From: a virus
DNA: 63,362 bases
Strand: one strand, 5' to 3'
IMG/VR virus record: IMGVR_UViG_3300045988_114118
Shown here one piece after another: positions 2,435 to 24,712 of this stretch. Each line of letters opens with the position of its first letter. The stretch's first letter is position 1. Below the pieces are notes generated by a model. It searched no databases and was not told the DNA's origin. It saw only the letters and a program-made list of their open reading frames with translations. The position numbers and the translations under genes were made by a program.

Positions 2435-2548
2435 GCAACTTTTAAGTTGCGTTTGTTTGCTTGTATTGTTGTTTTACGATGCAAATATAATGCAATTGCA
2501 TTAATGGTAGAAATATTATGTGATAAATATTAATGCTTTTGCATTAAT
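2435..2548. promoter_or_regulatory. divergent promoter/operator region with three inverted repeats
   Basis: gcaactt-tt-aagttgc (2435-2450); perfect 16-bp palindrome taatgcaattgcatta (2488-2503); attaatgc-tttt-gcattaat (2529-2548); shared AATGCA/TGCATT half-sites. Confidence 0.6.
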
Positions 2549-2564
2549 TAACTATGGTCGATAT

Positions 2565-3353
2565 ATGGAGACAATCAATAACAGGATTAAACTAATTGTA
2601 GATGAGTTGTTTGATGGCAATGTTAGTGCATTTTGCCGTAGAGTAGGAGTAAAACAGCCTACTATTAATACAATATTAGGGACTCGTCAAAGTAAGCCTT
2701 CATATGATATTATTAATGCTATTGCATTATCTGGGCTGGGTGTGTCTTTGGCATGGTTAGTTACAGGATCTGGTGAAATGAAGGATGAGGGGAATGTTAA
2801 GGACGAGGTATTAGAAATACCTTTAGACCTTAATAAAGGAGATTTCTTAATTGAGAATAATAATGGCGTTAAATTTTATGACTTAGGAAATGGTCGATAT
2901 CGTATGACTGTCAGCAAGGTGCCGTTTTGCGCTTATGGCAGGTTTGCTAACGAAAGCGATCGTCTTGATCCGGATAAGGAGGATTGGGAGACTGAGTCTT
3001 TCGAATGGGATCGGATTGTCCATGGGAGATATTTAGCTTTTGAGGTTAAAGGGGACAGCATGGACAACGGGACGAGAGAGAGTTTTGAGGAAGGCGATGT
3101 CGTCCTTGTTAGGGAGCTGGATAGATCGCATTGGAGAGATGGGCTGCGATATAAGGATCATCCTTATTGGGTTGTCGTGTTTGGGACATCCGTCCTCATA
3201 AAGCAGATGACAGGCTGCGATATGGACGAGGGTAAGATAACGTTGCACTCACTAAACCCATCTCCAGAGTTTTCCGATTTCTCTTTACCGCTAGATAGCG
3301 TGAGGGCTTTATATTATGTATTACAGAAAAAGCCTAAAGTCGTGAGATTTTAA
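2565..3353 (+). CDS. CI/LexA-like repressor (N-terminal XRE-type HTH plus C-terminal S24 peptidase)
   Basis: NVSAFCRRVGVKQPTINTILG HTH; FEVKGDSMDNG...GDVVLV plus a downstream Lys (LIKQM), typical of S24 autopeptidases. ATG at 2565 is preferred over the GTG at 2520. Confidence 0.85.
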   Translation: METINNRIKLIVDELFDGNVSAFCRRVGVKQPTINTILGTRQSKPSYDIINAIALSGLGVSLAWLVTGSGEMKDEGNVKDEVLEIPLDLNKGDFLIENNNGVKFYDLGNGRYRMTVSKVPFCAYGRFANESDRLDPDKEDWETESFEWDRIVHGRYLAFEVKGDSMDNGTRESFEEGDVVLVRELDRSHWRDGLRYKDHPYWVVVFGTSVLIKQMTGCDMDEGKITLHSLNPSPEFSDFSLPLDSVRALYYVLQKKPKVVRF

Positions 3354-3466
3354 CGAGAAAGCCATACGCAAAAATGATATGATGTTCTTTAGCGTATCCT
3401 TGCCCTGTTAAAACGTGATAATAAATATTTGATGTATAAATCGATACGATACAAAATGGAGAAATA

Positions 3467-3508
3467 CTTCTAAGCTGTGGGTCATGGGTTCGAATCCCAT
3501 CCTGATCA
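3467..3508 (+). other. attP core: copy of the 3' half of a tRNA-Arg(UCU) gene
   Basis: CTTCTAA (anticodon loop, TCT)-GCTGT-GGGTC-ATGGG/TTCGAAT/CCCAT-CCTGATC-A. There is no complementary 5' half upstream; the site lies about 150 nt upstream of the integrase. Confidence 0.7.
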
Positions 3509-3513
3509 CGAAG

Positions 3514-3567
3514 AGCGGAAGTTTATAATTGTTTGATATTTAGCTATTAAACTTCCGCTTTTATTTT
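3514..3567 (+). terminator. hairpin plus T-run directly after the tRNA fragment
   Basis: agcggaagttta ... taaacttccgct (12-bp stem) followed by tttatttt. Confidence 0.6.
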
Positions 3568-3663
3568 AGATCTTTCCCCTTTTGTAGATTAAAAAAAAGG
3601 ATATAAAGTCCACTTTTGGACATAAAAGCTTATCCTTCGCGTATCCTAAAAAATTTAATCTAT

Positions 3664-4911
3664 ATGGCTACTTTAAAATTGACACTTTTCAAGGCCAAGG
3701 CTCTCAAGGATGGGAGGCACAAGGTCAGGGTGGCGGTCTGCCACAAGAGAGAGACTTGTTATATCGTGACGAACGTGATATTAGATAGCGAGTCCCAGTT
3801 TAAGAACGGTCAAGTCGTAAAGAGACCGGACGCTTCTTTTATAAACAAAAGATTGAGGAATATGCTTAATGAGTATCAAGACAAGCTTGACTCGATTAAG
3901 AACCAATCGTTATATACATGCGTGCAGATAAAGGGAATGTTGGTTAATTCAGCAGGGGATAACGATATCTCTACGTTCAAGGATGTAAGCTCATCCTATG
4001 AAAGGGAGTTGATCGATAATGGGAGTATCGGGTACTCAAAGCTGATCGAGCGGAATTGCAGGTATTTTACCGAGTTCGTGAAAGGGGATATATTCCTTTC
4101 CGATATCACTCCAGAACTGATAGAAGGTTATTCTAGGTTCTTGAGGAATAAAAAGGGAATTGGGGAGGCCACGAACTCCATGATGATGAGACATACCAAG
4201 ACTATAATCAATAAGGGTATAAAAAGAAGGCTTGTGAAATATGATGTCCATCCTTTCGTAAACTTCCAGATAGCGACTTCTCCCGTACGTGAGGTTGACA
4301 TATCTTTCGAGTCATTTAATCGTTTGCGAATGGCCGATCCTTCGGAGCGCCGATTAAAGGTGGCGCACGATCTGTTTTGCTTGTCGTTTTATCTTGGAGG
4401 TATCAATCTTATAGATCTACTTGGTATTGATTTCCGTGGAATCAATACGCTGGAATATGTAAGGACTAAATCTAGGAATATGACGAGGGGAGGCAATAAG
4501 ATCGTGTTCTCTATACCAGACCAAGCGAGAGATATTATAGATAGATGGATGGATAAGAGGACTGGCAAGTTGGATTTCGGATATAAGTTTTCCTATCCTA
4601 ATTTCTCTAGGTATCTTTCTCGTTCGCTATCCAAATTGGCGCAGTCGTTAGGGATAACGGAAAAAGTGGTGTATTATTCCGCTCGTAAATCTTTCGCTCA
4701 ATATGCTTCCGAGATAGGAATCCCGGATGGGGTCATAGATTATTGTTTAGGGCATTCAGATAAGTCGAAAGGCGTGATACGTTATTATACTAAGGTAAAA
4801 AAATTTCAAGCGGACATGGCGATATCAAGGGTAATTGATTACGTTAACAATCCGGATCGTTACCGGGATTATGTGGAGATGAGAAGGGATATAATGATGA
4901 TGCGTGGGTAA
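3664..4911 (+). CDS. int: tyrosine recombinase / phage integrase
   Basis: N-term MATLKLTLFKAKALKDGRHKVRVAV (arm-binding type); C-term ARKSF...CLGHS...VIRYY (R..H..Y catalytic pattern); adjacent to the tRNA-derived attP. Confidence 0.9.
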   Translation: MATLKLTLFKAKALKDGRHKVRVAVCHKRETCYIVTNVILDSESQFKNGQVVKRPDASFINKRLRNMLNEYQDKLDSIKNQSLYTCVQIKGMLVNSAGDNDISTFKDVSSSYERELIDNGSIGYSKLIERNCRYFTEFVKGDIFLSDITPELIEGYSRFLRNKKGIGEATNSMMMRHTKTIINKGIKRRLVKYDVHPFVNFQIATSPVREVDISFESFNRLRMADPSERRLKVAHDLFCLSFYLGGINLIDLLGIDFRGINTLEYVRTKSRNMTRGGNKIVFSIPDQARDIIDRWMDKRTGKLDFGYKFSYPNFSRYLSRSLSKLAQSLGITEKVVYYSARKSFAQYASEIGIPDGVIDYCLGHSDKSKGVIRYYTKVKKFQADMAISRVIDYVNNPDRYRDYVEMRRDIMMMRG

Positions 4912-6560: not shown

Positions 6561-6659
6561 ACTGAACTAGTATTTAATAGTTTATCTGAAAGTCGATTTT
6601 TATTGTTATGGGGCAAAGCTACACGTCTAATTTTGAGGCATAACGATAAAAATCATTTT

Positions 6660-7208
6660 ATGGGAATAATAGGTAGTGTAGTGGGTGGTCTGGCTGGCAT
6701 AGGTGGGGCCATAGGAGCCGGGATAGCCGGACGTAAGGCTTACAAGAAAAATATGGGGATACTGAATGACATGAGGCAGGATTCCCAAAATTGGTATGAC
6801 AGGGAGTATAACTCGGATTTCACCCAAAGGGCGGACGCTCAAGCCGCCCTTAACAACGCACGGCGAATCCTTGACGAGAGATACAGGAGGGCGGAGGGTG
6901 CCGCCGCCGTTGCGGGCGCATCCGATGAGTCCGTGGCCTTGCAGAAACAAGCGGCCAACGAGGTCTTGGGGGACGTGACTAGCGATATCGTAGGCCAAGC
7001 CGAGGCTTATAAGGAGGGTGTGCGTAACAATTATGTAAACCAGCAGACCGCATTCAACCAAGCGGAGATGGATTTAAACTCTAAAAAGGCGGCGAACGTA
7101 GCCACGCAAGCGGTGGGATTGGCTACGGCGGCTGGAGGTCTTGGAGACGCTTTTGGCGATGGCGTTTTAAGGAGCACAAAACTTGGTAAATGGGCGGGAG
7201 TGAAGTGA
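6660..7208 (+). CDS. glycine-zipper membrane protein (putative virion/ejection protein)
   Basis: MGIIGSVVGGLAGIGGAIGAGIAG N-terminus and a Gly/Ala-rich C-terminus; first gene of the operon that ends in the giant ORF. Confidence 0.6.
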   Translation: MGIIGSVVGGLAGIGGAIGAGIAGRKAYKKNMGILNDMRQDSQNWYDREYNSDFTQRADAQAALNNARRILDERYRRAEGAAAVAGASDESVALQKQAANEVLGDVTSDIVGQAEAYKEGVRNNYVNQQTAFNQAEMDLNSKKAANVATQAVGLATAAGGLGDAFGDGVLRSTKLGKWAGVK

Positions 7209-7209
7209 T

Positions 7210-8535
7210 ATGGCTGGAAGAATAGATTTAGTAGAGGAAGAGAGGAGGAGAAACGCACAAGCCGTGGCTCCTCAAGCTACGTCCGGTGCGAGCGTGCCGG
7301 CACAGGTACCTGTATCCCAGCCCGTGGCGCAACCACAGCCTCAAGTACAATCTCCGGCACCTGTTCCCGGTACGGTGGGAACGGCTATACCGGATGTGGG
7401 GACCGCCCCGTTGCAGGCCCCATCTTTAACGCAAGCGCCGGTGAAACCAGAGGCAGCCCCGTTGTCCATGTATGACAAGTTCGCGGATATGACAGCTGAG
7501 CAAGCCATTAACACGGGTGAGATAACCCCGCAAGGATATTGGAACATACAAAGCGAGGCGATCAAGGCGGGTAAGCGTGATCCTTACTCCACGGAGGAGA
7601 TTATCGAGATGATGCGTACGAGCGATCCCGAGTACGAGACGGGCGAGCAAAGGGCGAGACGTGAGAGGAACGACCGGGCGAGCCGTGCCATAACGGGGAT
7701 AAGCGACCTGATAAGCAACATAGCTGGAATGGTGGGGACGGCCAAGGGATCGAGTCCCGTGGTCGTGAACAATCTCGCTCCCCTTGACGCTAGGCAACGT
7801 GAGATAACGGAAAGGAGAAACGCCTTGAAGAGGAAATACGATACGTTGCTCACGAACGCCAAGATGGGTGAGATAGCCTATCAACGTGATCTGGAGTCGG
7901 CTAGGCAAAAGGCGCAGAGGGATTATCGTTTGAAGCTGGCCTTGAAGGATATTGACGCTAGGATAAGGAAGGGCGAGATCGATCAAAAGCAAGCTAACGC
8001 AATGACATTGGAGGCGTACAGGCAAGCGAACAGAATGGCTACGGAGCAATTCAAGGCAGAGAACCGATCCAAGGAAGAGGCGGCGAACCGAGCGAACCAG
8101 ATAAAGGTCGCTAACATAAGATCTGGTGGTTCTGGAGGAGCGAAGGATATTGTACTGTTTGGTCGAGATAATGAAGAGTTTCGTATACCTAGAGATAAGG
8201 TGGACGGATTTGTTACAGCGGCCTATCAAGCCATGAAGGATTTGATTGCTAAAAAAAATAAAGAAATTGAGCAAGACTCTTCCTTGACCAAGGAAGAAAA
8301 AGAGAATCTAAAATTATCAGATATAGATGATATTAAACTTGTGATGGGTGAGGGCGGTGATCAGATAAGCAAAGCGAGAGCGATAGTTGGTAGACGGCTA
8401 GCTGATTTCCCGGAACTGTATCCAATGCTGAAAGGCATGCTTGAGGATCGTTCTGATAGTTATAAGAATATCAATCTGAATGATGATGCAAAAGAAAGTG
8501 TAAACGAAAAATACAAGTGGATTCATGGACTCTAA
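7210..8535 (+). CDS. P/Q-rich, coiled-coil protein (putative virion internal protein)
   Basis: 441 aa; N-terminal PQ-rich low-complexity region, then charged heptad-like sequence; overlaps the next gene by 11 nt. Confidence 0.65.
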   Translation: MAGRIDLVEEERRRNAQAVAPQATSGASVPAQVPVSQPVAQPQPQVQSPAPVPGTVGTAIPDVGTAPLQAPSLTQAPVKPEAAPLSMYDKFADMTAEQAINTGEITPQGYWNIQSEAIKAGKRDPYSTEEIIEMMRTSDPEYETGEQRARRERNDRASRAITGISDLISNIAGMVGTAKGSSPVVVNNLAPLDARQREITERRNALKRKYDTLLTNAKMGEIAYQRDLESARQKAQRDYRLKLALKDIDARIRKGEIDQKQANAMTLEAYRQANRMATEQFKAENRSKEEAANRANQIKVANIRSGGSGGAKDIVLFGRDNEEFRIPRDKVDGFVTAAYQAMKDLIAKKNKEIEQDSSLTKEEKENLKLSDIDDIKLVMGEGGDQISKARAIVGRRLADFPELYPMLKGMLEDRSDSYKNINLNDDAKESVNEKYKWIHGL

Positions 8536-11500
8536 CATAAAACATTTATATGATACGATGATAAGCCGGGGCTATACTGGTCTTGGTGATTTCTCAAACT
8601 TTGAGGGGAAAATGAAAGATTCTGGGAAAAGAAAATTGGTTTATGATCATCTGATGCAGGATGATTATTTCTCTGAGATAGGCGATTTCTCCAAATTTGA
8701 GAGTGCCCTAGGGTATTTGCCCGTTGAAAGGAAAGATTACGTTTCTCAGTCAAGAGCTAATCCTGCTCCTATCGCTTTAAGACAAGAGGCTGACGTGCCT
8801 ATGAAGGATCAATCGGAATACGTTAATCCGTGGACGAACTCACCTGATTATAATTTTGAGTCCTTGCGTAAAAAAGGAAAGATTGAGACTGCGACTCCTC
8901 CACCTCCTACGGAGTATGAGAAGGATTCTTCTTTCATGAATAGTTGGGTTGCGGATTTCATTCAGCGTACCGGAGGCCAAGGATTGAATCTTTTAGGTGG
9001 AGGATTCGGTTTCTTGGATAAGGCGACAAAAGATGTCTCTAATATGGGCCTTGGTACTTATGGAGGAATGTTTGGTGACTCTGCTAAATTGCTTAAGGAG
9101 GCTGGTCAAAAACTCATGGATAAGGGTGATAGGCACAAAGAGAAGAGTTTCACGGATCTATGGAAAGAAGGTGATTACGCCGGATCAATTAGCAACTTGT
9201 TCATGGAAGGAGGTTCTATGATCATTCCACAAATAGCTGCGGCTATGGCTACAGGTGGAACTAGCGCGGCCGGTTTGATGGGAGCCTCCGTATATTCGGA
9301 TAAGCTGGATCAACTCGATGAGTCAAATCCGGATATGCCAGAATTGGCAAAGAGGGTCAATGCCATATCTACATCCGCTTTTGAATTATTATCCGAGAAA
9401 CTTTCATTGGGTCCGGCGGTTAAATGGCTTAAAGGCGTATATAACTCAAAGGGAAAGGATGTCGCTCAAAAAGAACTAGCTGGAGCCATAGAGAATATAC
9501 TTGGCAAGGCTTATAAAGATGCGGGATTATTGTTTGCACCCGTATGGGAAGGTGTCACGGAGGCCGCTTCGCAGATTGCGGAGAATATTACGGACAAGGT
9601 AACTGGGGCTGATCCCGATAAAAATATATCTGATGGCGTATTTGAGGCTTTCGGATATGGAGTTGCTGGTGGCGCTCCAATAGGTTTGATCGGATATGGG
9701 AAGAATAAGTATGATAATTACAAGTATAATAAAATGTCTTCTCCAGAACCTTCTACTAATTCATCTAAAACAGATCAAGGCGTTAATACTACTCCTCAAT
9801 TCACTAAGTCTATAATTGACGATGCCTTTGAGCAAGGACGTAATATGAGTGATAAGGGAGATCTTAGGGATTTATCCTTACAAATGGAAGCTTCGAGGAC
9901 TGCTCTAACAGAAAAAAATCCAAATTTGGCTATAAGAATGGAGCAGTATATAGATAATGGAGCGAGTGAGAACCAAATAAATGAGATGCTTAAAGGTGTA
10001 GATAATGAGACAAGAGAATTAGCTTATGATTTCTATATTAACACCCAGAAAATTAAAGGGGTAGAAGATAAATCGATAGAAAATATTAATAACGAAGTGG
10101 ATTCTTATATGTCTGATAATATTATTCCCTATGTATCGATAAGTCCTAATGGGAGACAAGTCATATCTACCGCTACGTTCAAGGAAGGACTTGAGAACAA
10201 GAAAGTTTATATAAGGAGCATAAATGGGGATAACGTCATTATCTCGGATAACGGAAATAATCGTATGGTTCCTATGAGTAGTTTGAGCGATATAGAGGAA
10301 AATGACGTGGAACAAATAAGGAACTCTTATCGTCAACAATTATTGGTTACTCGCCAGTCCGAACTTGATATGGCCATGAATCATAATCCCAAGACGCAAT
10401 TACCCAAGCCGGGATTGGTCATATGGAACGGGGATAATGCGTTTATCCTTCAAGGACAAGATGAGAACGGTGATTGGATCGCTCAACCTGCGGCTTATGA
10501 TAGAGAAACCGGGCAGGTGACAGCCAAGAATGGCTCTTCCCCCGCAATGCCTATAACAGAGAATGAGATTCTTGATCTTCAAGATGCCATATATGACTCT
10601 CAACAAGTTAATGTGGTGTCGCCAGAGGATGATAATGTAGCAAGTGCTGATGCCGAGATAACCTCTGCACCTCCTGTGGAAGATGCGATCAACCAGCCAA
10701 CGAGTGAGATTGAGACGGAAGGTGCCATTGATCAGATAGCACAACCTAGCAATGTAGAGAATCCCTCCATGGTCATGCGAGAAGATGGTACGCCAGATTT
10801 CGTATCGTCTGGTACGGATATGACCTTGGATTTCCTCCATGATAAATATGGCGATAAGATGCCAAGGAAGATCGAGGTGACGAGAAAGTCTTTCGATGAA
10901 AGCCTTAAAAAAGCGTCCGATGCCTTGGAAAAGGCGCAAGAGGCATACGATGACGCCCCTATCGGAAAAGAGGATAAGGCCGAGGCCGCATTGATAAAAG
11001 CCCGACAAGAATATGAGGCGATCAAGGTCGAGGCTGATTTCTGGGCTAATCTTGATGATGATATCAAGGAGGCCAGCAAGAAGCCGGGTGATGTCATAGC
11101 AAAGGAGATCTCCGTGATGGGTGATCCTATGAGCGGAGAGGAGCTTGCGGCCATGATGCTGGCTAATGGGGCGATCAAATTGACACGTGACAGTTACAAG
11201 AAAGAGACCGGTGCCGGGAATAATGAGACTGCAAGAATGTTCGGATTGTTCGCCTCTCCGGAGAAAGGCGGTGTTAATATAGAGAGGGCAGGTGAGATAT
11301 TGGAGCTTGCCGATAGGGAGAATGGCACTAACTTCTTCGATGAGAACGATACGAACGCCGGAAGGGACGCTATCATAGAGGTCTTGTCTTCCGCTCATAC
11401 ACGTGGAGACTTGATCGATTATGTCAAGAGGAACCGTGAGGCGATCGCTGAGCGTGAGAGACAGGCCGAGTACAACGCTTACGCTGAGTGGTGCGAGGAG

Positions 11501-14500
11501 AATTATCATATGTCCCCGGAAGAATACGAGGCGTATGAGGAAAGCATGGCACGTGATTTCTCGGAGAAACAATTGACTGATGAGGAGCGAGGCGAGCTTA
11601 ATTCGCAAATCATGGATGAAATACAGGCCATAATTGACGAACAAAATGAAATAGACGCTATCTTAGCGCAAAATAAACCGATAGAAAATGAAAACATTGA
11701 AGGAAATGACGAAAGCGGAGGCGATGGCTTACGCGAGGGAGGCGGCGAGGTATTGCCAAGAGAACAACTTGATCAGACCGGGGGAACTGGAGAGGTTGAG
11801 GGAAGAGAATCGGCTGGCCCCGACATTGATCGCACGGATGGAGCTACACAAGAAGGCTCATCAAGGGGACTAGTTTCTTTTGTCGCTCCTTCTCCAAAGG
11901 AGAATGAGACCCCATTGGACTATGCCGAGCGCATAGTTGAGGCTAAGAGATTGCACGAAGAGGAGCTAAAGGTTGATACCAATCCAACAGAGGCGCAGAA
12001 AGAGGCCGGGAATTACAAGAAAGGGCACATAAAGATAAACGGTTTCGATGTTTCCATAGAACAGCCCGTTGGTTCCGTCCGTTCAGGTAAGGACGCTAGC
12101 GGAAAGGAGTGGTCGCAGGTCATGAATAACACTTACGGTTACATTCGAGGCACTGAAAGTGTGGATGGTGATCATATAGACGTATTCCTAGGTCCGGATA
12201 TGAATAGTGACATGGTGTATGTCGTGGATCAGGTGAATACTGATGGCTCATTCGATGAGCATAAGGTTATGATGGGATTCTCTTCCTTGGAAGACGCAAG
12301 GTCCGCTTACTTGTCAAACTATGGGGAAGGTTGGCAAGGGTTAGGCAACATTACCGGGGTAGCGTTGGATGAGTTCAAGAAATGGATTGATTCTTCAATC
12401 CGGAAGACCAAACCGTTCTCTGAATATAAAGGAATTAAACGGGAGGAAGATATTGCCCCCCGAAAAGTAAAGAAATTGTCTTTGGTTGATAAAGACGATT
12501 ATATTACCTCCGCAGAGCGGAAGCATATAAAAGCGTTTCTGGAGAGTGGATTGAAAGAGGCAAGGGTGAACAATTCTATCTACGAGATTTCTAATATTGG
12601 TGATGATGGTGTTTATGAGATCGTAAGGCGGTTTAACTATACCGATCCATTGACCTTGGTGAAAGACGAGAACGGTAAACTAGTTAATAAGCGAGGGGAG
12701 GGTGAACATGTTATAAGGGTAAAGCCCACTTTTGAGGAGACAAGGCCGGATAGTGGTATTCGTTTCAGGGAGACACGTATTATCCCCGAAGAGGAAAATA
12801 TCATAAAGAAAGCGAAATCCGATGGATCTTATATGAAAGCTCCTAATGGCAACCCTACTAATCTTAACGAAAAGCAATGGGTACAAGTTCGTACGAAAGC
12901 GTTTAAGGAATGGTTCGGTGATTGGGAAAATAATCCAGAGGATGCGTCTAAAGTGATCGATGAGAATGGTGAGCCAAGGGTTGTATATCATGGAACATAT
13001 TCCGATTTTAACGCATTTGACGAATCCCATCTGGGAGATGTCACTAATCTTAATGCTACAAACGAGGATTGGGCAAAAACCTCACATATAGGATTCTGGT
13101 TTAATGATAATAAAATAGGTTTCTATACGAAACATAAACCAGTGTTCCTTAACGTTAGGAATCCTTTAGAGTTTGCTTCAATGGAATCGCTCGTTGATGA
13201 AATGAGTTATTATGATTCAGGAGAGGATTTCAAGCGATCAAATTCAGATGGGTATGATTCTGTGATAGTCCTTGAGGACGAAGAAATGGGAGGAAGATCC
13301 TATTCGGTCTTTAATGATAATCAAATAAAGTCTGCTACCGAAAACAATGGGGGCTTTTCTTCTCATAATGATGACATCCGCTTCCGGGAAGTAAAAGATA
13401 AGAATGGCGAAAAGTCCTTGGTTGGGTTACATAATATCAGTGAAGAAAAACTTCGAAAAGCATTGAGACAAGGAGGCTTCGCCAATCCGAGTGCGGCCGT
13501 TATAGACATATCCAGACAATCGCATACTGGCTATGGTTCCATATCGCTTGTACTTCCCTCTTCCATGATAGAGAAACGTACTGGAAAAAATGCTGGTACT
13601 TGGAGTCAAGACGCATGGACACCCATTTATCCAACTATAGAGAGGCAGTTTTCAGGGAAAGGCAGTGACGCATTTTCAAAAGACTTGCAAAAACTTCCAG
13701 AGGAAATGCGGTCGACAACCAAAAGTGGGATGGACAGCTATATGGATGGAAGAGGCGAGGATAGTCTTGCTTATATGTATTTATATGAGCAAGGTAAAGC
13801 TCCGGAATTAGCCCGTACAAAGCCTTCATATCCGGAGAAAACAAGAACCGAAGTTGAAGATGCCACAAATGGATCGTTCTCCATGAGTGGTTTGTCTGAC
13901 AAGCAATTGTCCCGTCTGAAAGATGCCTATATGGAATATAAAGGATTTAGTACGGAAGGTTACAATGAGGCGATAAAACTTCGTAGAGCCAAGCTTGAAG
14001 AAGCTATAGGTAAAATGAATCCAAGATCAATCCTCTACGAGAAACGTAAGACGGATCTTGAACGAATCGATAAGTATGGGTTTGATTACTCTGCGGTAGA
14101 AAGCTTCATGAAATCAGTACGTGATGACATAAGCAATTCTGACAAGGTTGATGCTCACGGAACAATGCGCGATTCATGGAATTTCATAGAAGAAAATGGA
14201 ATGCGAGGCGATTTTAACAAGTGGCTCGATAAATTGAATGAAAGGTACGGGATAAAAGAAATTATTTTTAACGGATTTACTCCTTCCGGTATAAGAAAGT
14301 ACATTCCTAACACCTTGGAGAACGTATCCAAGTTTATGAAGAAGCAAGGAAGAAGCGCATCTGTCGGAATAGGTGCGTCGTTCCAAAATTTCGCTGCGAG
14401 TTTGCTGGATGCTAAAGGCTCACTGAAAGATATACGCAAGGATAAAGGGAAGCTGACTACGGATCATGCTGACGTTGACGCTTTCAGGGATAAATGGTCT

Positions 14501-17500
14501 AAGGTATTTCATGAGTTAGGAGAAAAATTGCAACCGGATGCCAAAGGATATGACGACTACGGTCTATACAGGTTGGCGGAAGCGGCACGAAGCAAAGACC
14601 CTCAAAAATATATAAAGGAAGAATATGGGATAGATTTTTCTGATGAGGATGTGAAGACGCTGAATGAGATGGTGGATGCCATAAGGAATGAATATCCGGC
14701 AATGTACTTCGAGACTAAGTTTGAACGTCCTGTATATTTGGAGGAATTTGCTGCCGCTGTAGTCCCGGATAACGTAGATGGTGACATTCGTAAGGCGATA
14801 TACGATGCGGGTTTGAAAATATTCACTTATAAAGCCGATGATGAAATATCGAGAAATGAGGCAGTTAAGCAAGCCTCAGAAATTGATGGCGTTCGTTTTC
14901 GTTCTATAGGTGATAAAGGCGCTGATAATTTAAATAAGGCTGAAACTATTGAATCCTCAATCAACGATTGGTCTACCAAGCTTAACACCCCTGTCAGGGT
15001 AATCCATGACGTGGACGATATAAACGATACGGATGAGAATATGTTGGCCCGTAAGAGAGATTCCAAAGGCTGGTATGATACTTCTACCGGGGAGATAGTC
15101 ATAGTATCATCTAATTCCACGTCCGTAGGTGACGCTCAAAGGACTTTCCTCCATGAGGTGGTAGGGCATCATGGGTTACGTGAGCTATTCGGGGATGATT
15201 TCGATACTTTCCTTGATAACGTGTATCGGAACGCCAACGAGGATATCCGGAAAAATATCATTGACCGGACTAAAGGCAATCCTCTTAACTTGCGTGAGGC
15301 TACAGAGGAATACCTAGCGGAATTAGCGGAACGTGGTTTCGATAACAAGGTCGATCGTTCGTTATGGGAAAAGATCAAGGACGCTTTTCTTGATATGTTG
15401 AGAAAGGCAGGTATTAGCCTTGATTTCAAGTTATCGGATAATGACCTCCGTTATATTCTCTGGAGAAGCTATAAGAACTTGGAGCAAGGGAACTTGATGG
15501 ATGTGGCCGAGGATACGGTAATGAGGAATGATTTGGGTGTCGGGGATTTTTCTGTTCGGTTTAGGGAAGCGAAAACAGAGGTGGAGAATGAAGAACCTTT
15601 GAATAAGGAAATGGTTGACGCTTGGGATAAAGTGGCATCTTCAGACAGTTTTAAGTTCAAGGAGGCTATGGTTGATTCTTTAACAGCTATAGATGAGTTC
15701 TTGAAATTATTGGCCAAGAAAACCAAATCGAAGATACTGGATTACGAGAACCCATATTACGCTCTTATAGCCTTGTCTTCAAAGAATAAGGCAGATATGG
15801 ATAGTTTCGACTCTAAATTCCTGAATCCTTTGAATGAGGCTATAAGGGCATTGATAGGTGATGTCTCTGAGGTGTCCAAGAAAGGCTTAAGAAGAACTTG
15901 GGATTGGTCTAAAGGGCCATTAAGGGATTTGGTTAAATATGTACAATCTAAACACGGTATCGAGAGAAACCGTGATATGTCCGTAAGGGATGGCATAGAA
16001 ACTCTTAAGGCGTTTGACGTGGACGCTTTGTCTAAAATGGGGGTTATTTCCGAGTCTGATCTTAAAAACGCTAAAAAAACAGCGGAAAAGGTTGCGGAGG
16101 AAAAGGGGAGTGAGGCTTACAAAAAGACGTATGACAAGGTTCTTGGCAAGGAACTAAAGAAAGGTGTTGATAAAGGTAAGGCTGAGCGTTCTGCTGAGAT
16201 AGCCGCCGATTATCGGCAATCATTTGTCAAATCCGAGATCTATAACAAGGAGATGGATAAATATAAAGAAAAGGTGACCGGAACGTTGATTGATAGGTGG
16301 GAAGATTCAAAGAAAGATATCCTTAAGAAGGGTCTAGCGTGGGACGAGGAACAAAAGGAGTTGGATCGAGAGGCATTGTCATTCCAATGGAAGTTAGGCG
16401 ATAATTCTTATGGTGTGATTCTAGGAAAGGACTATAGTGGTTTGTCTTCAGTGTTTAAGCCTTCGGAGGATGGGGCGAATAAAGATAAATGGCTTTCTGA
16501 CGCTTATGATTTCGTGAGAGATTATGAGTCTACCCACAATATGGTTTTGGTCGATAATCTATGGGATAAGGTTCATAACGTGTCAGAGTATACGTTAAGG
16601 AGGCAGTATGAGTCCGGGCTGATAAGCAAGTCCTATATGGATAAGAACCTTTCCCGGTTTAAGTACTTTATCCCGTTGAGAGGTTTCTCCGATAATATTG
16701 CCTCCGATGTTTATGATTACATAGACGCTACGGAGATAAAGATGGGAAACCCAGTGAAGACCGCAAAAGGACGTATCTCTGAGGCTGATAATCCTTTTGC
16801 TGGTTTGATACACGTTGGATACGGATCTATTACCGCTGGAAATAGGAACTTGGCGAAACAACGTTTTCTCAATTTAGCTAGCAATCATGACACTGGCGGT
16901 CTTATTACCATAGATAATATCTGGGTTCGAAATGTCGGTACCGAGGAAAATCCGGAATGGGTGGAGTCCATTCCGCAAATACCGGATAACGCTTCTGGCG
17001 AGGAAGTGGCCAAGGCGGTGAAAGATCATGAGGAAATGATGAGAGAGCTTAGAGAGGAAGGTAAGGCTGAGCTGATTAAAGGAGGTCGATCGGATATACC
17101 ATATAAAACATTGTATGACCAGAGAAGCCAGCATCAGGTACAGGTTTTCGTGGGAGGTAACAGGTATGTCATGACCGTTAATGGCAATCCCCGATTGGCG
17201 CAAGCGGTAAATGGATTGACTAATCCGGATGTGAAGGATGATCTCGCTTACGTCGTAGCTAGGAACTTGAAAACATTTATGGCCGGAGCTTTTACGTCCA
17301 AGAACGTGGCGTTCTCGTTTGCCAACTTGATAAGAGATACGCCTTATGCCAATAACTCCGTGTTTGTGACGGAGAACTTTAGGTATTTCAAGGATTTTTC
17401 AGGGAACCAGAGGCGAGCGTTATTTGGACTTCGGAGTTTAGGTCGTAATCTGTATAAATACAAAAGGGGAGAGATCGATATTTCTGATAAGGAACAGGCA

Positions 17501-19021
17501 ATATTTAAGGAGTTCATGGATAATGGAGGGGCTACTGGATATACGTTCGTGGAGACGCAAAAAGAATACGCCAAGGATTTAGCGAACAAGTTAGAGAAAC
17601 TTTCGGATGGTAATATTGGGAAGTTATCCCCCAAAGAACTAGTCTCTACTGTTTTTGAGTGCTTTGAGTTCATGGGTAACGTAGCGGAACTTGTGAACCG
17701 ATATGCGGCGTATAAGACGAGCCGGGAACATGGAAGATCCATTGACCGGTCAATCAATGATGCCAAGGAGGTATCGGTTAACTTTAACAAGAAAGGTGCC
17801 GGAAAGAAAACGAAGAGCGATAAATGGTATATTAACACAGCGGCGTGGATATCTGAGTATGGAAGAGATTGGGTGTTGTTCTTTAACGCCGCCGTTCAAA
17901 GCATGTATAAGGAATATTCCATGCTGATAAATCATCCAATTAAAGGAATAGGTTCCCGTATTGCCCCACTAATATTCATGGGATCGTCTGTCTCGTTGCT
18001 CAATAATATGTTTATGCCTATGCTCTTCGCTTATTTGGGATGGGATAGCGATGATGATGATAGGGATTATTTTGATTCATTGAGCGATCATGAGAGACAG
18101 AATAATATATGTATTCGTTTGACTCATGGTCGTTGGCTCAAGATTCCGTTATCTCCGGAGCTTGCCAATTATTTCAAGATCGGAGATATAATTGCCGGGC
18201 AATTATCCGGTAAAAGGGAAGTGGAGGCTATGGATGTCGTTAAGACAGGGATTGATATGGTATCCCCGTTAAACATAAACTGGGAGTATGATAGTTGGAA
18301 GTTCGCTCTAAATCTCCTGCCTACGGTGGTTCAGCCTATCGCCCAAAACGCCTCTAACGTGAATTTTATGGGTAATCCTATCTATAAGACCTCGATGAAT
18401 AAGGCTAATGATTATGATCCGGAGTACACCAAGGTCTACAGGAGTACCAGTACCACCATGGTCGAGTTGTCGAGGGCGCTTAACTCGTTGACGGGTGGCG
18501 ACGATGTCAAGAGAGGTCTGAGCTTTAATCCGGCTACTTGGCAGAACATTTTTTCCGGATATACGGGAGGTTTTGGTACCGTAGCCTTGGGTGTGTCTGA
18601 TTTAGTCCTTGATATACTGTCCGGAGAGGATGGAGATATGCCAGTGAGTCGTTATCCACTGTTAAGCCGTTTCTTGACCGGAGGGGATAAGGATTTGAAG
18701 CTGAGCCGGATGAATTCCATATATAACAAGAAGGTCGTAGACTTTGTCTCGGAAATGGATCATGATTACAAAGGGTATCTAGAGAAGTCCATGGACCCAT
18801 CTATCAATATTCTTGACAGGGCCGAATATATCGTAAAACTTGAGAAGTTTATGAAAAGTGATGATTTCAAGAAATCTCAAGAATTATCTCAATACGTGAG
18901 AGCCATATCCGATATGGAAAGGTTCCTTCGTGAGGTAGGTAGCGATAATGATTCTCTGGAGAACCAAGTGTACGAGCTGAAGCTACGAGCGTTGGAGATA
19001 TTTGAGGATTCAGATGAGTGA
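8525..19021 (+). CDS. giant multi-domain 'polyvalent' protein (3,498 aa)
   Basis: uninterrupted 10.5-kb ORF; contains PPase-like, ART-like and HExxH modules and C-terminal hydrophobic helices. Confidence 0.95.
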   Translation: MDSNIKHLYDTMISRGYTGLGDFSNFEGKMKDSGKRKLVYDHLMQDDYFSEIGDFSKFESALGYLPVERKDYVSQSRANPAPIALRQEADVPMKDQSEYVNPWTNSPDYNFESLRKKGKIETATPPPPTEYEKDSSFMNSWVADFIQRTGGQGLNLLGGGFGFLDKATKDVSNMGLGTYGGMFGDSAKLLKEAGQKLMDKGDRHKEKSFTDLWKEGDYAGSISNLFMEGGSMIIPQIAAAMATGGTSAAGLMGASVYSDKLDQLDESNPDMPELAKRVNAISTSAFELLSEKLSLGPAVKWLKGVYNSKGKDVAQKELAGAIENILGKAYKDAGLLFAPVWEGVTEAASQIAENITDKVTGADPDKNISDGVFEAFGYGVAGGAPIGLIGYGKNKYDNYKYNKMSSPEPSTNSSKTDQGVNTTPQFTKSIIDDAFEQGRNMSDKGDLRDLSLQMEASRTALTEKNPNLAIRMEQYIDNGASENQINEMLKGVDNETRELAYDFYINTQKIKGVEDKSIENINNEVDSYMSDNIIPYVSISPNGRQVISTATFKEGLENKKVYIRSINGDNVIISDNGNNRMVPMSSLSDIEENDVEQIRNSYRQQLLVTRQSELDMAMNHNPKTQLPKPGLVIWNGDNAFILQGQDENGDWIAQPAAYDRETGQVTAKNGSSPAMPITENEILDLQDAIYDSQQVNVVSPEDDNVASADAEITSAPPVEDAINQPTSEIETEGAIDQIAQPSNVENPSMVMREDGTPDFVSSGTDMTLDFLHDKYGDKMPRKIEVTRKSFDESLKKASDALEKAQEAYDDAPIGKEDKAEAALIKARQEYEAIKVEADFWANLDDDIKEASKKPGDVIAKEISVMGDPMSGEELAAMMLANGAIKLTRDSYKKETGAGNNETARMFGLFASPEKGGVNIERAGEILELADRENGTNFFDENDTNAGRDAIIEVLSSAHTRGDLIDYVKRNREAIAERERQAEYNAYAEWCEENYHMSPEEYEAYEESMARDFSEKQLTDEERGELNSQIMDEIQAIIDEQNEIDAILAQNKPIENENIEGNDESGGDGLREGGGEVLPREQLDQTGGTGEVEGRESAGPDIDRTDGATQEGSSRGLVSFVAPSPKENETPLDYAERIVEAKRLHEEELKVDTNPTEAQKEAGNYKKGHIKINGFDVSIEQPVGSVRSGKDASGKEWSQVMNNTYGYIRGTESVDGDHIDVFLGPDMNSDMVYVVDQVNTDGSFDEHKVMMGFSSLEDARSAYLSNYGEGWQGLGNITGVALDEFKKWIDSSIRKTKPFSEYKGIKREEDIAPRKVKKLSLVDKDDYITSAERKHIKAFLESGLKEARVNNSIYEISNIGDDGVYEIVRRFNYTDPLTLVKDENGKLVNKRGEGEHVIRVKPTFEETRPDSGIRFRETRIIPEEENIIKKAKSDGSYMKAPNGNPTNLNEKQWVQVRTKAFKEWFGDWENNPEDASKVIDENGEPRVVYHGTYSDFNAFDESHLGDVTNLNATNEDWAKTSHIGFWFNDNKIGFYTKHKPVFLNVRNPLEFASMESLVDEMSYYDSGEDFKRSNSDGYDSVIVLEDEEMGGRSYSVFNDNQIKSATENNGGFSSHNDDIRFREVKDKNGEKSLVGLHNISEEKLRKALRQGGFANPSAAVIDISRQSHTGYGSISLVLPSSMIEKRTGKNAGTWSQDAWTPIYPTIERQFSGKGSDAFSKDLQKLPEEMRSTTKSGMDSYMDGRGEDSLAYMYLYEQGKAPELARTKPSYPEKTRTEVEDATNGSFSMSGLSDKQLSRLKDAYMEYKGFSTEGYNEAIKLRRAKLEEAIGKMNPRSILYEKRKTDLERIDKYGFDYSAVESFMKSVRDDISNSDKVDAHGTMRDSWNFIEENGMRGDFNKWLDKLNERYGIKEIIFNGFTPSGIRKYIPNTLENVSKFMKKQGRSASVGIGASFQNFAASLLDAKGSLKDIRKDKGKLTTDHADVDAFRDKWSKVFHELGEKLQPDAKGYDDYGLYRLAEAARSKDPQKYIKEEYGIDFSDEDVKTLNEMVDAIRNEYPAMYFETKFERPVYLEEFAAAVVPDNVDGDIRKAIYDAGLKIFTYKADDEISRNEAVKQASEIDGVRFRSIGDKGADNLNKAETIESSINDWSTKLNTPVRVIHDVDDINDTDENMLARKRDSKGWYDTSTGEIVIVSSNSTSVGDAQRTFLHEVVGHHGLRELFGDDFDTFLDNVYRNANEDIRKNIIDRTKGNPLNLREATEEYLAELAERGFDNKVDRSLWEKIKDAFLDMLRKAGISLDFKLSDNDLRYILWRSYKNLEQGNLMDVAEDTVMRNDLGVGDFSVRFREAKTEVENEEPLNKEMVDAWDKVASSDSFKFKEAMVDSLTAIDEFLKLLAKKTKSKILDYENPYYALIALSSKNKADMDSFDSKFLNPLNEAIRALIGDVSEVSKKGLRRTWDWSKGPLRDLVKYVQSKHGIERNRDMSVRDGIETLKAFDVDALSKMGVISESDLKNAKKTAEKVAEEKGSEAYKKTYDKVLGKELKKGVDKGKAERSAEIAADYRQSFVKSEIYNKEMDKYKEKVTGTLIDRWEDSKKDILKKGLAWDEEQKELDREALSFQWKLGDNSYGVILGKDYSGLSSVFKPSEDGANKDKWLSDAYDFVRDYESTHNMVLVDNLWDKVHNVSEYTLRRQYESGLISKSYMDKNLSRFKYFIPLRGFSDNIASDVYDYIDATEIKMGNPVKTAKGRISEADNPFAGLIHVGYGSITAGNRNLAKQRFLNLASNHDTGGLITIDNIWVRNVGTEENPEWVESIPQIPDNASGEEVAKAVKDHEEMMRELREEGKAELIKGGRSDIPYKTLYDQRSQHQVQVFVGGNRYVMTVNGNPRLAQAVNGLTNPDVKDDLAYVVARNLKTFMAGAFTSKNVAFSFANLIRDTPYANNSVFVTENFRYFKDFSGNQRRALFGLRSLGRNLYKYKRGEIDISDKEQAIFKEFMDNGGATGYTFVETQKEYAKDLANKLEKLSDGNIGKLSPKELVSTVFECFEFMGNVAELVNRYAAYKTSREHGRSIDRSINDAKEVSVNFNKKGAGKKTKSDKWYINTAAWISEYGRDWVLFFNAAVQSMYKEYSMLINHPIKGIGSRIAPLIFMGSSVSLLNNMFMPMLFAYLGWDSDDDDRDYFDSLSDHERQNNICIRLTHGRWLKIPLSPELANYFKIGDIIAGQLSGKREVEAMDVVKTGIDMVSPLNINWEYDSWKFALNLLPTVVQPIAQNASNVNFMGNPIYKTSMNKANDYDPEYTKVYRSTSTTMVELSRALNSLTGGDDVKRGLSFNPATWQNIFSGYTGGFGTVALGVSDLVLDILSGEDGDMPVSRYPLLSRFLTGGDKDLKLSRMNSIYNKKVVDFVSEMDHDYKGYLEKSMDPSINILDRAEYIVKLEKFMKSDDFKKSQELSQYVRAISDMERFLREVGSDNDSLENQVYELKLRALEIFEDSDE
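12008..12360 (+). other. inorganic-pyrophosphatase-like domain within the giant ORF (aa 1162-1279)
   Basis: NTYGYIRGTESVDGDHIDVFLGP...DEHKVMMGF; DGDHIDV is one residue off the family I PPase DxDPxDV signature. Confidence 0.55.
12971..13390 (+). other. ADP-ribosyltransferase-like module within the giant ORF (aa 1483-1622)
   Basis: RVVYHGT..F..FD...GFWF...FLNVRNP...YSVFNDNQIKSA pattern, recalled from ART-type domains of polyvalent proteins; not verified by search. Confidence 0.4.
14968..15470 (+). other. zincin-type metallopeptidase module within the giant ORF (HEVVGHH at 15152-15172)
   Basis: TFLHEVVGHHGLRELFG carries an HExxH motif, with a helical region downstream. Confidence 0.6.
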
Positions 19022-19072
19022 AAAGATAGCGGGTGGCGTTTGGTGTCACCCGCTATGTATAATTTTTTCATT

Positions 19073-22079: not shown

Positions 22080-22099
22080 AAGATTTTTAATAGCTAATT

Positions 22100-22712: not shown

Positions 22713-24647
22713 TTATAATTGTTGATTGATAGCGTCGATGCCTTGGCCGGCTATCATTTGTTGTTGCTGAGCGGCTAATTGTTCCTTCTGCGACTGGATC
22801 AATTGCAATAACTGATCGGCGAACGGGAAATTTCCCACCTCGAGCATTTGCTCGATAGATATCTGCTTGGCGTTCAGCAACTGCAATAGCAACTCGTTGG
22901 ATAACGCCCTGTATACCGGAGTGTCGTAGCTCTCTGATATGGATATGTCGAAATCCACGCCTCCCATGGTCTCCGGGTCCCATTGGACATAGCCGTTCCT
23001 TCCAACGATCCTTATTATTTTTTTATCGTCGTAGAATTGCTGGATGTTCTTGCACTTCTTGTACATGCCCGATATGATGAAGCTGGCGAACGATTCCAGC
23101 AAGTCCACGATGCTGTTGCTGGCGTTGGACGCTTGTTGCTGGTATAAGGCTCCGCTTGTCCCGCTCGTGGGCTGTTTCCCCTGCATGGCCCCTTGTACCC
23201 CGGATACGTCCTCCATCATGGACATCTGTAATTTTATCATGTCTCCCAACCCTGCCGGCACGCTCCGGTTCATCATCTGCTGGGGGACCTGTGCCCCCGA
23301 TTTGAGTTTCAGCTTGATCACGCCGTTGAACTTCGTCCACTCGTCCGCTATATCCTCTATGCTCATGTCATCGGGAACGGAGGCCTCGTCTACCACCAGC
23401 ACTCCCTTGGCGCTCGCTTTCGTCACGAAATCGTTCAGGATGATATAATGGTTGATATACCTTTGCTGGTCGATGATGTCGCTGACGAACGAGTGTATCT
23501 CCCCGTCAACGAAAGGATATGCCTTCATCGTGTAAGGGTGGCTCCCGTGGCTATAAGGGCTTTCTCCCTCGTCAAGTATATCCCCGAACGGTGAAAGATA
23601 ACGGTAGTACCAGTAGCTTTGTATCATGTACTCGTACTCTATGAGCGGGACCTCGCTCTCTGGCATGTATAGCGTGGGTTGTCCCAGCTCGTCCAGCACG
23701 TAATTCCCCAGATCGTCCTTGATCCTGTTATCCTCCAGCCGGCCCTCGTTCTCAGCGTCTATGTTCCCCTTGTTCGAGTAACTGTCCACGTAAGCGTCGC
23801 CCTTCAGCCAGTCGTGGCACCAGAACGCCTTTCTTCTCTCGAGCGTCCATAGTTCTATCACACGGCATAAGCGGGGGTCTTGCGGGGCCATAAACCCGTT
23901 AAGGTCATAGTTGTTGCCCTTGAACGTGTCGTTGAACTTGGCGATATAGTCCTTGTCACGGGCGTTCTTGTATATATCTTGCAGCCTTTCATAACCCCTG
24001 TCATCCTTGGCGAATACGCTGGCGAGTTGCCCGAAGGTCACGTCATGGATCTCTCCGATCATCTCGATGTCGGTATGTCTGGGGTCGTTCATGGGGCCAT
24101 CCACGAAGAACAGGTTCGGGTTGACGTTGTCAGTCCAGCATTCCCTTCGGTTCTCCCTTTGGGCGTAGGTCTCTTTCTGTATGGATAGGCCGCTTATGAG
24201 GAACTCCTCGAACATCCTTGCGTTCAGCTCCTTGATGTCGTTGATCTTGTTGTTGTACTCGAGCATGGTGCTCATGGTCTCTCCCAGCGTTTGCTCGTCA
24301 CGATCCCTCGCCACGCACACGGGTGTCTTATTCTGGTTCCGATAAACGCCGATGACGGTCCTTGCCAACCTTCGGATAAGGTTGTTGGTCATGGGGATAT
24401 TCCCCTGCATCCTTATATATTCCTCCTCCGGGATCATCCGGCCACAATACTCGATCAGGTCCCCCCATTGGTCGCCGTACATATATCTCTTGTTCCTGTC
24501 CCTCTCTTTCCTGAACTTGTCGAGCTTGTCCCATGCCCTAGCGCATTGGTATACCAATGGCATGTTCCGCCCGTCCGTCATGTTTCGTCTCTCGTATTTG
24601 ACGGTATCTATAGGTGATATCCTCGATTTAGGGATCAATCTAGTCAT
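22713..24647 (-). CDS. portal protein (by size and position)
   Basis: 644 aa, immediately downstream of TerL; Q-rich C-terminus. Confidence 0.6.
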   Translation of the reverse strand: MTRLIPKSRISPIDTVKYERRNMTDGRNMPLVYQCARAWDKLDKFRKERDRNKRYMYGDQWGDLIEYCGRMIPEEEYIRMQGNIPMTNNLIRRLARTVIGVYRNQNKTPVCVARDRDEQTLGETMSTMLEYNNKINDIKELNARMFEEFLISGLSIQKETYAQRENRRECWTDNVNPNLFFVDGPMNDPRHTDIEMIGEIHDVTFGQLASVFAKDDRGYERLQDIYKNARDKDYIAKFNDTFKGNNYDLNGFMAPQDPRLCRVIELWTLERRKAFWCHDWLKGDAYVDSYSNKGNIDAENEGRLEDNRIKDDLGNYVLDELGQPTLYMPESEVPLIEYEYMIQSYWYYRYLSPFGDILDEGESPYSHGSHPYTMKAYPFVDGEIHSFVSDIIDQQRYINHYIILNDFVTKASAKGVLVVDEASVPDDMSIEDIADEWTKFNGVIKLKLKSGAQVPQQMMNRSVPAGLGDMIKLQMSMMEDVSGVQGAMQGKQPTSGTSGALYQQQASNASNSIVDLLESFASFIISGMYKKCKNIQQFYDDKKIIRIVGRNGYVQWDPETMGGVDFDISISESYDTPVYRALSNELLLQLLNAKQISIEQMLEVGNFPFADQLLQLIQSQKEQLAAQQQQMIAGQGIDAINQQL

Positions 24648-24712
24648 GGATTCTTTTTTCTGACGAATATGGGGACTTGGCGTTCAATCGTAACGATAAA
24701 ACTTGTCGGTTG

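Follow-up and report, generated by a model that had tools for sequence, protein, structure and literature searches.

The window analysed here is the whole of IMG/VR virus record IMGVR_UViG_3300045988_114118, a 63,362-nucleotide (nt) stretch of viral DNA, and our subject is a giant open reading frame (ORF) of 3,498 amino acids (aa) on its plus strand. We propose, with a probability of about 0.72, that this gene encodes a large internal virion (ejection) protein of the phage-type polyvalent class, made by a temperate, probably short-tailed Bacteroides phage. The ORF list and the translation show an ATG start and no internal stop, and its 10,497 nt make up 16.6% of the window, as expected from a preliminary description made from the letters alone, which had reported an uninterrupted ORF of about one sixth of the genome. 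The gene was also said to be the last of a three-gene operon, and the spacing agrees: a 1-nt gap separates the first and second genes, and the last 11 nt of the second lie within the giant ORF. The three genes are:

6660..7208, plus strand: first operon gene, 182 aa from its ATG (the mechanical ORF runs from a TTG at 6603).
7210..8535, plus strand: second operon gene, 441 aa.
8525..19021, plus strand: giant polyvalent protein gene, 3,498 aa, third of the operon.

Over its full length the giant gene is 98.5% identical in DNA to gp68 of Bacteroides phage BF1-TP2 (PQ571263.1; host B. fragilis), which is annotated as 'hypothetical protein' and has 3,633 aa, the 136 aa more being a single insertion at about aa 1302. 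To that extent the gene is already known, as a near-identical GenBank entry marked 'hypothetical'. What is new here is an architecture of scaffold and variable cargo, a joint motif containing Arg-Phe-Arg (RFR), an invariant domain with the motif HExxxH that no model describes, and a C-terminal module without a structural relative.

The protein was searched against Pfam whole, at curated cut-offs, and as ten overlapping pieces of about 400 aa, at E<=10. It is made up of the following parts:

aa 1-1112 (nt 8525..11860, plus strand): N-terminal scaffold, no Pfam domain.
aa 1156-1288 (nt 11990..12388, plus strand): InPase (PF18823), E 1.1e-57, 194 bits against a cut-off of 26.8, profile positions 1-134 of 135.
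aa 1479-1611 (nt 12959..13357, plus strand): ART-PolyVal (PF18760), E 8.5e-16, 59.4 bits against 31.2, full-length match.
aa 1618-2104 (nt 13376..14836, plus strand): PBECR5 module, a 487-aa unit whose last ~370 aa have no Pfam model.
aa 1620-1736 (plus strand): PBECR5 (PF18814), an RNase-like domain of the PBECR type, E 9e-22, 78.5 bits against 25, profile positions 4-119 of 239.
aa ~2128-2340 (nt 14906..15544, plus strand): HExxxH domain, a candidate metallopeptidase without a Pfam model, which heads the conserved C-terminal half.
aa 2345-3498 (nt 15557..19018, plus strand): C-terminal conserved module, mostly long helices, including LPD38.
aa 3182-3378 (nt 18068-18658, plus strand): LPD38 (PF18857), E 1.3e-28, 100.8 bits against 27, profile positions 3-187 of 189.

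These matches bear out the pyrophosphatase-like and ART-like modules of the preliminary description, and with at least two unrelated enzyme or effector domains above the Pfam cut-offs the protein is rightly called polyvalent. Every motif string that had been quoted was found in the translation, at or within the positions where it had been placed: NTYGYIRGT at aa 1202, DGDHIDVFLGP at aa 1214 and DEHKVMMGF at aa 1244 for the pyrophosphatase (PPase); VVYHGT at aa 1486, GFWF at aa 1523 and SVFNDNQIKSA at aa 1594 for the ART domain; and HEVVGHH starting at aa 2210. Two regions that had been left as unassigned are not so, since aa 1620-2120 opens with PBECR5 and aa 2350-3498 includes LPD38, both of which had been overlooked. 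The scan of the ten pieces gave nothing further that was credible, and no peptidase family.

The InPase domain retains the motif YGYI...DGDHIDV and is kept in divergent relatives. We take D1214-G-D1216-H-I-D1219 to align with D65-G-D67-P-V-D70 of E. coli PPase (within residues 54-74); D1240, D1244 and K1247 were mapped to family I PPase residues by eye only. A phmmer search from InPase against the PDB reached no solved PPase, and its sole relative there was the C-terminal domain of the Pa193 portal gp19 (E 3e-34), which lies in the capsid interior and has no density in the map. In the ART domain, H1489 and the conserved Asp (within LEDEE) are present. According to Iyer 2017 (J Bacteriol; PMC5512222), InPase, ART-PolyVal, PBECR5 and LPD38 were all defined from polyvalent proteins of phages and conjugative elements, and InPase and LPD38 are confined to the phage-type ones.

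The evidence for packaging comes from relatives in other phages. By tblastn, the C-terminal part matches 316 phage records, which include Stx-converting podophages such as phi24B, Ralstonia GP4-like and Burkholderia Bcep22-like phages, some 100 phages of Vibrio and, at 34% identity, two further phages of Bacteroides. The phi24B protein gp47 is collinear with aa 2183-3383 of the window protein at about 22% identity, its residues 1537-1665, 1909-1994 and 2032-2698 corresponding to aa 2183-2311, 2377-2482 and 2680-3383, and the giants of Bcep22, GP4 and Vibrio phages have part of the C-terminal module in common. Mass spectrometry found gp47 to be abundant in purified phi24B virions, where it is unseen in the cryogenic electron microscopy map, and it has been proposed to be an ejection protein (bioRxiv 10.64898/2026.04.10.717836). 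In the Bcep22-like podovirus JC1, mass spectrometry assigned the products of three consecutive genes, gp67 (196 aa), gp68 (510 aa) and gp69 (4,515 aa), to the virion. A list of putative ejection proteins from short-tailed phages, drawn up by the Casjens laboratory, includes giants of this kind (PMC8402733). By analogy with these C-terminal-module homologues, phi24B gp47 and JC1 gp69, virion proteomics backs the earlier suggestion that the window protein is packaged and ejected.

The C-terminal module, aa 2345-3498, is the most conserved, family-defining part of the protein, with 46 invariant positions in an alignment of 38 sequences at 24-54% identity, and phrog_14770 matches aa 2169-3491 at E 9e-175. 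An AlphaFold2 model of its 1,154 residues is largely helical, with helices of up to ~50 residues (predicted local distance difference test, pLDDT, 78.4; predicted template-modelling score, pTM, 0.74). The preliminary description had taken this C-terminus to be membrane-active, which is not supported here. The hydrophobic segments it singled out (IAPLIFMG..., aa 3146-3173; GFGTVALG..., aa 3349-3365) have Kyte-Doolittle means of 1.38 and 1.37 over 19 residues, the former being the maximum, so that no 19-residue stretch exceeds 1.4 and none is of transmembrane grade; both map to modelled helices of a predicted soluble helical fold. Membrane insertion of the C-terminal region after ejection, although conceivable, finds no support here.

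At the other end, the N-terminal scaffold consists of sub-modules at about aa 125-420 (Gly-rich and moderately hydrophobic), 430-700 and 700-1110; the Gly/Ala-rich stretch reported near aa 225-260 is present at aa 225-257. The gene family is common: 381 representative homologues (clusters at 50% identity) match this N-terminal part, nearly all of them in proteins of 3,000-5,500 aa, with the best metagenome variants 96-98% and others 74-84% identical. A match to phrog_10089 spans only aa 340-1427, that is, scaffold and InPase. The Gly-rich sub-module (GGQGLNLLGGGFGF, GGSMIIPQIAAAMATGGTSAAGLMG, FGYGVAGGAPIGLIGYG; nt 8897-9784, aa 125-420) recurs at the N-termini of many giants, is also found as stand-alone proteins of 190-430 aa and resembles the glycine-zipper start of the 182-aa protein encoded upstream.

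This 182-aa protein begins with a glycine-zipper-like segment and is 46% identical (E 2e-34) to a 184-aa protein of the related contig L008, which in turn matches PF24072 (T7_gp14) along almost all of its length (E 7e-6; 26.5 bits, below the cut-off of 27). T7_gp14 was matched at E<=0.01 by 16 of 23 diverse members of this small-protein family (best E 9.8e-6, narrowly short of the cut-off) with no competing family; a PDB search with the family profile came back empty. At the level of the family, these matches suggest that the 182-aa protein is probably an internal virion (ejection) protein of the T7 gp14 family. The 441-aa protein has a P/Q/A-rich N-terminus followed by a charged, probably helical region and matches no Pfam or PHROG family. 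It corresponds, by size and position only, to a gene of ~420-510 aa that precedes the giant in phi24B, JC1 and GP4; mass spectrometry placed the JC1 counterpart in virions, and that of GP4 bears the annotation 'virion structural protein'. The succession of a small, a medium and a giant gene is suggestive of the T7 and P22 sets, an analogy that rests on order and size plus the gp14-like signal. A homologue 81% identical to the 441-aa protein (P0286 and related clusters) occurs on 251 contigs of up to 327 kb. Because the contigs reach this length and their sources include NCBI genome assemblies, the phage lineage appears to be a common prophage.

Tyrosine recombinase and repressor-like genes just upstream of the operon (window positions 2520-4911) mark the phage as temperate. 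Several gene-level features argue that it is probably short-tailed: it has a capsid protein of the SU10 type, close relatives have a portal that matches P22_portal, the annotation of the near-identical BF1-TP2 record shows neither tape measure nor tube nor sheath, and the closest BFVD entry (95% identity) carries the label Podoviridae. In the BF1-TP2 record, which is about 5 kb longer than the window, a transposase is annotated between large virion/tail genes (32870-34009).

In the mechanism that we propose, a few copies of the giant protein would be packaged in the capsid by way of the conserved N- and C-terminal scaffold regions. At infection the protein would leave through portal and tail in a state that is unfolded at least in part, accompanied by the products of the two smaller genes, and its enzyme modules would then act early in the cytoplasm as effectors. 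As candidate activities, the modules might remove pyrophosphate or a nucleotide signal, ADP-ribosylate a host target or cleave RNA, and the turnover of modules described below would reflect an arms race with host defences. The conserved parts might also form a conduit across the envelope.

A number of observations weigh against this proposal. The window's own 182-aa protein misses T7_gp14 at E<=0.01, and the profile of its family does not align to T7 gp14 itself in hhalign. BLASTP and hhalign failed to relate the 441-aa protein to GP4 gp69 or to the 421-aa protein of phi24B. The C-terminal module found no PDB relative with sequence profiles, which returned only coiled-coil and low-complexity noise, or with Foldseek (best E 0.46, template-modelling score 0.06), T7-type ejection proteins included. 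At the strand-2 position of the ART domain the protein has W1525, where the family has a catalytic Tyr (some relatives read GFYF), and the match to PBECR5 stops after the N-terminal half of the Pfam model. The operon adjoins the lysogeny module and regulatory genes and lies outside the head/tail cluster (portal and terminase genes, 22713..26788). The podovirus morphology is itself drawn from genes, annotation and a database label, and virion data for this phage or BF1-TP2 were not found in the searchable literature.

Comparison with related proteins revealed a modular middle region. Metagenome proteins were recovered through the C-terminal half and compared to the window protein by BLASTP; many are 95-99% identical in the shared parts, mainly the C-terminal half, and differ by whole blocks with sharp junctions. 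The ART cassette (aa 1419-1617) is absent from 19 database proteins (90% clusters; junction pv1418|1618), aa 1416-2122 from five variants and aa 1313-1402 from four. The PBECR5 module (aa 1618-2104) is missing as a unit from four variants (P0012, P0018, P0042, P0074), and the same 487-aa unit is intact in many other giant proteins. Several variants carry an insert of ~130 aa after aa 2344, and some relatives carry inserts of ~180 aa with LPD13 or LPD3 near aa 1112. Distant full-length relatives keep the order N-terminal scaffold, InPase, variable region, HExxxH domain, C-terminal module. The particular combination of domains, which the preliminary description had presented as a feature of the protein, is therefore not fixed, since phages with 95-99% identical flanks carry different module sets.

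Several of the modules are bounded by a short peptide, which occurs at four places:

aa 1412-1416 (nt 12758..12772, plus strand): joint motif 1, G-IRFRE, at variant junction pv1415/1418.
aa 1618-1622 (nt 13376..13390, plus strand): joint motif 2, D-IRFRE.
aa 2123-2127 (nt 14891..14905, plus strand): joint motif 3, G-VRFRS, at the start of the conserved C-terminal half.
aa 2344-2348 (nt 15554..15568, plus strand): joint motif 4, S-VRFRE, where some variants have the ~130-aa insert.

The joints may be protease sites or structural docking elements, and the first of these possibilities leads to a refinement that does not exclude our main explanation. The giant would be a polyprotein in which the HExxxH domain, in cis, or another protease cuts at the ΦRFR joints after packaging or injection and sets free, as individual proteins, the InPase, ART and PBECR5 modules and the pieces of the scaffold. 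We consider this unlikely. Its fullest form is slightly more doubtful still: here the ΦRFR(E) joints would be standardised and would also allow cassettes to pass from phage to phage with the scaffold left intact, and the HExxxH domain would be a new metallopeptidase family that releases effectors after injection or while still in the capsid. The pattern [IV]RFR[ES] occurs four times against 0.006 expected from composition (0.33 for the tripeptide RFR), in every case exactly at a module boundary or variant junction; it was, however, defined after seeing the data, and when all tripeptides are considered the enrichment in this one protein is matched by 81 of 500 shuffles. Across 105 giant relatives (50% clusters) RFR is the most enriched tripeptide, with 178 occurrences against 42 expected and the context [DG][IVT]RFR[E]. 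Among divergent giants (26-63% identity), RF[RS] directly precedes the PBECR5 module in 10 of 15 and directly follows it in 11 of 15, and the ART modules of such giants end in '...G.F(S/D)..N.DIR[FYH][RS]'. Because the four window copies differ in their Arg and Phe codons, it is the peptide and not the DNA that is conserved. With these codon differences and no long direct repeats, DNA repeats were rejected as the cause of the cassette junctions. Motifs 3 and 4, the two that are covered by models, lie in low-pLDDT termini of well-folded modelled domains, which would suit a cleavage site; the motif could instead be a structural joint or docking strand, and it flanks no more than about a quarter of the HExxxH domains. 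Iyer 2017 (PMC5512222) holds an argument on each side, since it proposes zincin-mediated processing of polyvalent proteins and also reports that the best-studied of these giants, N4 vRNAP, enters the capsid without being processed. Cleavage at the RFR joints is here a proposal alone, and that the HExxxH domain does the cutting is speculative.

The HExxxH domain, always present in the family, had been described as a zincin. The string HEVVGHH is indeed found at aa 2210, but its spacing (H2210-E-V-V-G-H2215) is HExxxH and differs from the canonical zincin HExxH, and neither a Pfam peptidase nor a fold match supports the assignment. An alignment of 23 sequences (26-48% identity) shows no variation at H2210, E2211, H2215, E2262 and E2269, and the two downstream Glu residues, E2262 and E2269, are potential third-ligand positions. 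The consensus of 78 homologues reads 'T.LHEaVAHyGLR.LFG..FD.FLD.V...ATEEYLA.LAE...DNeLRYiLWRSY.NL', with HEaVAH[YH] at the motif. The AlphaFold2 model (pLDDT 87.6, pTM 0.82) comprises a three-stranded sheet, a long helix that bears the motif and a helical bundle. Foldseek with this model found nothing significant in the PDB (best E 1.3), zincins appearing at noise level (Collagenase T, E 2.9; anthrax lethal factor, E 4.3). Against BFVD, only other phage polyvalent proteins were matched, including a Stx-phage fragment at E 1e-4; SprT, IrrE and a crAss zincin reached E 0.3-0.9 only. The domain aligns to aa 1537-1665 of phi24B gp47, a segment that bears HEIIHH. From its invariant residues a metal-dependent hydrolase is plausible, whereas membership of the zincins finds no firm support, and the want of a significant fold match to solved peptidases tells against the polyprotein idea as well.

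Two other assignments of the HExxxH domain were rejected. MuF_C sits elsewhere in P0030, P0123 and phi24B gp47. The M49 dipeptidyl-peptidase III signatures, which we take to be HExxGH and EExxAE, resemble HEVVGH and EEYLAE by coincidence in this sequence, since the family has HEAVAH and EEYLAxLAE and no fold match was found. Several giant relatives (P0086, P0258, P0210, P0224, P0113) have two HExxxH domain copies per polypeptide, which makes the domain a discrete, duplicable module. Of the overall interpretation offered in the preliminary description, the polyvalent nature, the operon and the packaging are supported, and profile and structure searches matched its PPase and ART modules; the zincin, left unmatched by the same searches, and the membrane-active C-terminus are not supported.

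Another alternative is that the giant is essentially a structural protein of an ejection conduit or internal core, with decayed, inactive enzyme-like modules as passengers. Iyer 2017 (PMC5512222) gives the ART catalytic configuration as H-Y-D. Because W1525 replaces the Tyr, this configuration is incomplete and ART activity is uncertain. The half-length PBECR5 match, the variants that lack ART and/or PBECR5 on the same backbone, and the conservation of precisely the N- and C-terminal scaffolds could all be read in the same way. InPase, however, scores 194 bits with DGDxxDV intact and is retained in divergent relatives, ART keeps its His and Asp positions in a module that is conserved across distant giants, and turnover of cassettes that leaves the reading frames intact is what one would expect of effectors under selection, as opposed to decaying ones. 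We therefore regard purely structural passengers as improbable.

More improbable still is an unpackaged multi-enzyme that works in the cytoplasm, expressed by the prophage or at an early stage of infection, where it might, for example, serve to exclude superinfecting phages or to manipulate the host. The position of the operon between the lysogeny genes (2520..4911) and an anti-repressor/Rha region, away from the capsid genes, would suit such a role, as would the lack of virion data in the searchable literature mentioned above. Yet the giant genes of phi24B and GP4 likewise lie close to the end of the genome that carries the integrase, and gp47 of phi24B is found in virions; moreover, InPase and LPD38 are restricted to phage-type, virion-linked polyvalent proteins, and the 182-aa partner comes from a family that matches the profile of an internal virion protein. 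The idea of a tape measure, or of some tail protein, from a long-tailed phage, to which the great length, the richness in helices and the Gly-rich hydrophobic stretches might point, is hardly credible given the near-identical genome without annotated tail tube or sheath genes, the P22_portal-type portal of close relatives, the SU10-type capsid, the Podoviridae label of the closest BFVD entry and the podovirus morphology of phi24B, JC1 and GP4, the homologue phages whose morphology is known (that of the Vibrio phages is not).

The neighbourhood of the operon adds further observations. Past the stop codon of the giant gene lies one more feature:

19026-19056, no strand assigned: terminator-like hairpin with a 14-bp stem, between the giant gene stop codon and a convergent DnaJ-domain gene.

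The DnaJ-domain gene (19073-19705, minus strand) directly follows the giant gene and encodes 210 aa with an N-terminal J domain (E 1e-20); it is also kept in BF1-TP2 and four related metagenome contigs (L003, L004, L008, L009). Host DnaK could be recruited by such a phage J-protein, encoded beside a ~390-kDa protein that needs folding, packing and probably unfolding. Just past the DnaJ gene, BF1-TP2 has genes for an anti-repressor (Ant) and a Rha-like regulator, and related contigs have KilA-N or Bro-N/pRha genes at the equivalent of window positions 21381-22450, where the window's two ORFs match in size two ORFs of L009 (232 and 116 aa).

In some related contigs the giant ORF is split. A programmed frameshift was rejected as the explanation: L003 and L008 have 10-N gaps, L009 has one extra C, and the split positions differ. 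The 10-N runs lie inside the giant gene of the ENA scaffolds (about 2490-2500 in L003, about 9940-9950 in L008), and because of them two overlapping ORFs are called and family database entries are fragments of up to near 2,450 aa. In the window, a C6 tract at 12456-12461 (codons I-A-P-R, just after InPase) corresponds to a C7 tract in the Logan contig L009 that splits the ORF, which could be an assembly error or slipped-strand length variation. The 136-aa insertion of BF1-TP2 lies about 30 nt upstream of this tract.

To our knowledge, the injected proteins of temperate Bacteroides phages are almost unstudied, even though Bacteroides are dominant gut bacteria, and we found no literature on BF1-TP2 or on polyvalent proteins in Bacteroides phages. 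If our proposal is correct, the variants form a natural series of near-isogenic phages that differ only in their injected modules, a system for asking what each module counters. The HExxxH domain, the RFR joints and the 1,150-aa C-terminal module would be handles on the packing, ejection and perhaps processing of very large proteins, a question of packing and ejection that has been raised explicitly for phi24B gp47 (bioRxiv 10.64898/2026.04.10.717836).

Among known systems, the phage-type polyvalent proteins treated in Iyer 2017 (PMC5512222) are likewise single, phage-encoded giant polypeptides with unrelated enzyme domains whose co-delivery is predicted, and mosaic domain shuffling was noted there for H. 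pylori jhp1044. The window protein differs in having no Pfam MPTase-PolyVal member, its HExxxH domain being without a Pfam model; neither the RFR joint motif nor the layout of N-terminal scaffold, variable middle and C-terminal scaffold was found in the text of that paper that was searched. N4 vRNAP gp50 (3,500 aa) is similar in size and, according to that source, has a zincin-like motif about two thirds along, is packaged and injected, and needs its C-terminal region for encapsidation. Unlike the window protein, gp50 contains an RNA polymerase module, and its motif is a canonical HExxH; no N4-like phage name appears in the organism tallies or among the matches listed of the 316 tblastn records.

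T7 gp14, gp15 and gp16 are also encoded by three consecutive genes of rising size, as are the P22 ejection proteins gp7, gp20 and gp16, and both sets consist of internal virion proteins. The window giant has about 2.7 times the length of T7 gp16, and where the latter has a transglycosylase it bears effectors of a cytoplasmic type. Pfam, PDB sequence profiles and Foldseek gave no homology to T7 gp15 or gp16 or to P22 gp20 or gp16.

The 'DarB-like antirestriction' giants Bcep22 gp75, JC1 gp69 and GP4 gp68, named after similarity to P1 DarB, share part of the C-terminal module; a virion-associated or 'virion structural' gene of ~510 aa directly precedes the giant in JC1 and GP4, and JC1 also has the small one of 196 aa. 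The DarB-like label was rejected for the window protein, which has no helicase or methyltransferase match in Pfam, whether searched whole or as ten overlapping pieces. The likeness to phi24B gp47 (2,811 aa in the preprint, 2,807 aa in the GenBank record) extends to the whole second half, with HE domain, helical module and LPD38 in the same order, and to a gene of ~420 aa directly upstream. Its N-terminal half, in contrast, consists of LPD5, LPD1 and MuF_C, with no InPase, ART or PBECR5, and its motif HEIIHH can be read as a canonical HExxH, unlike the HExxxH of the window protein. The giant belongs to an ejection-protein lineage that is common to 933W/phi24B-like, Bcep22-like and GP4-like podophages.

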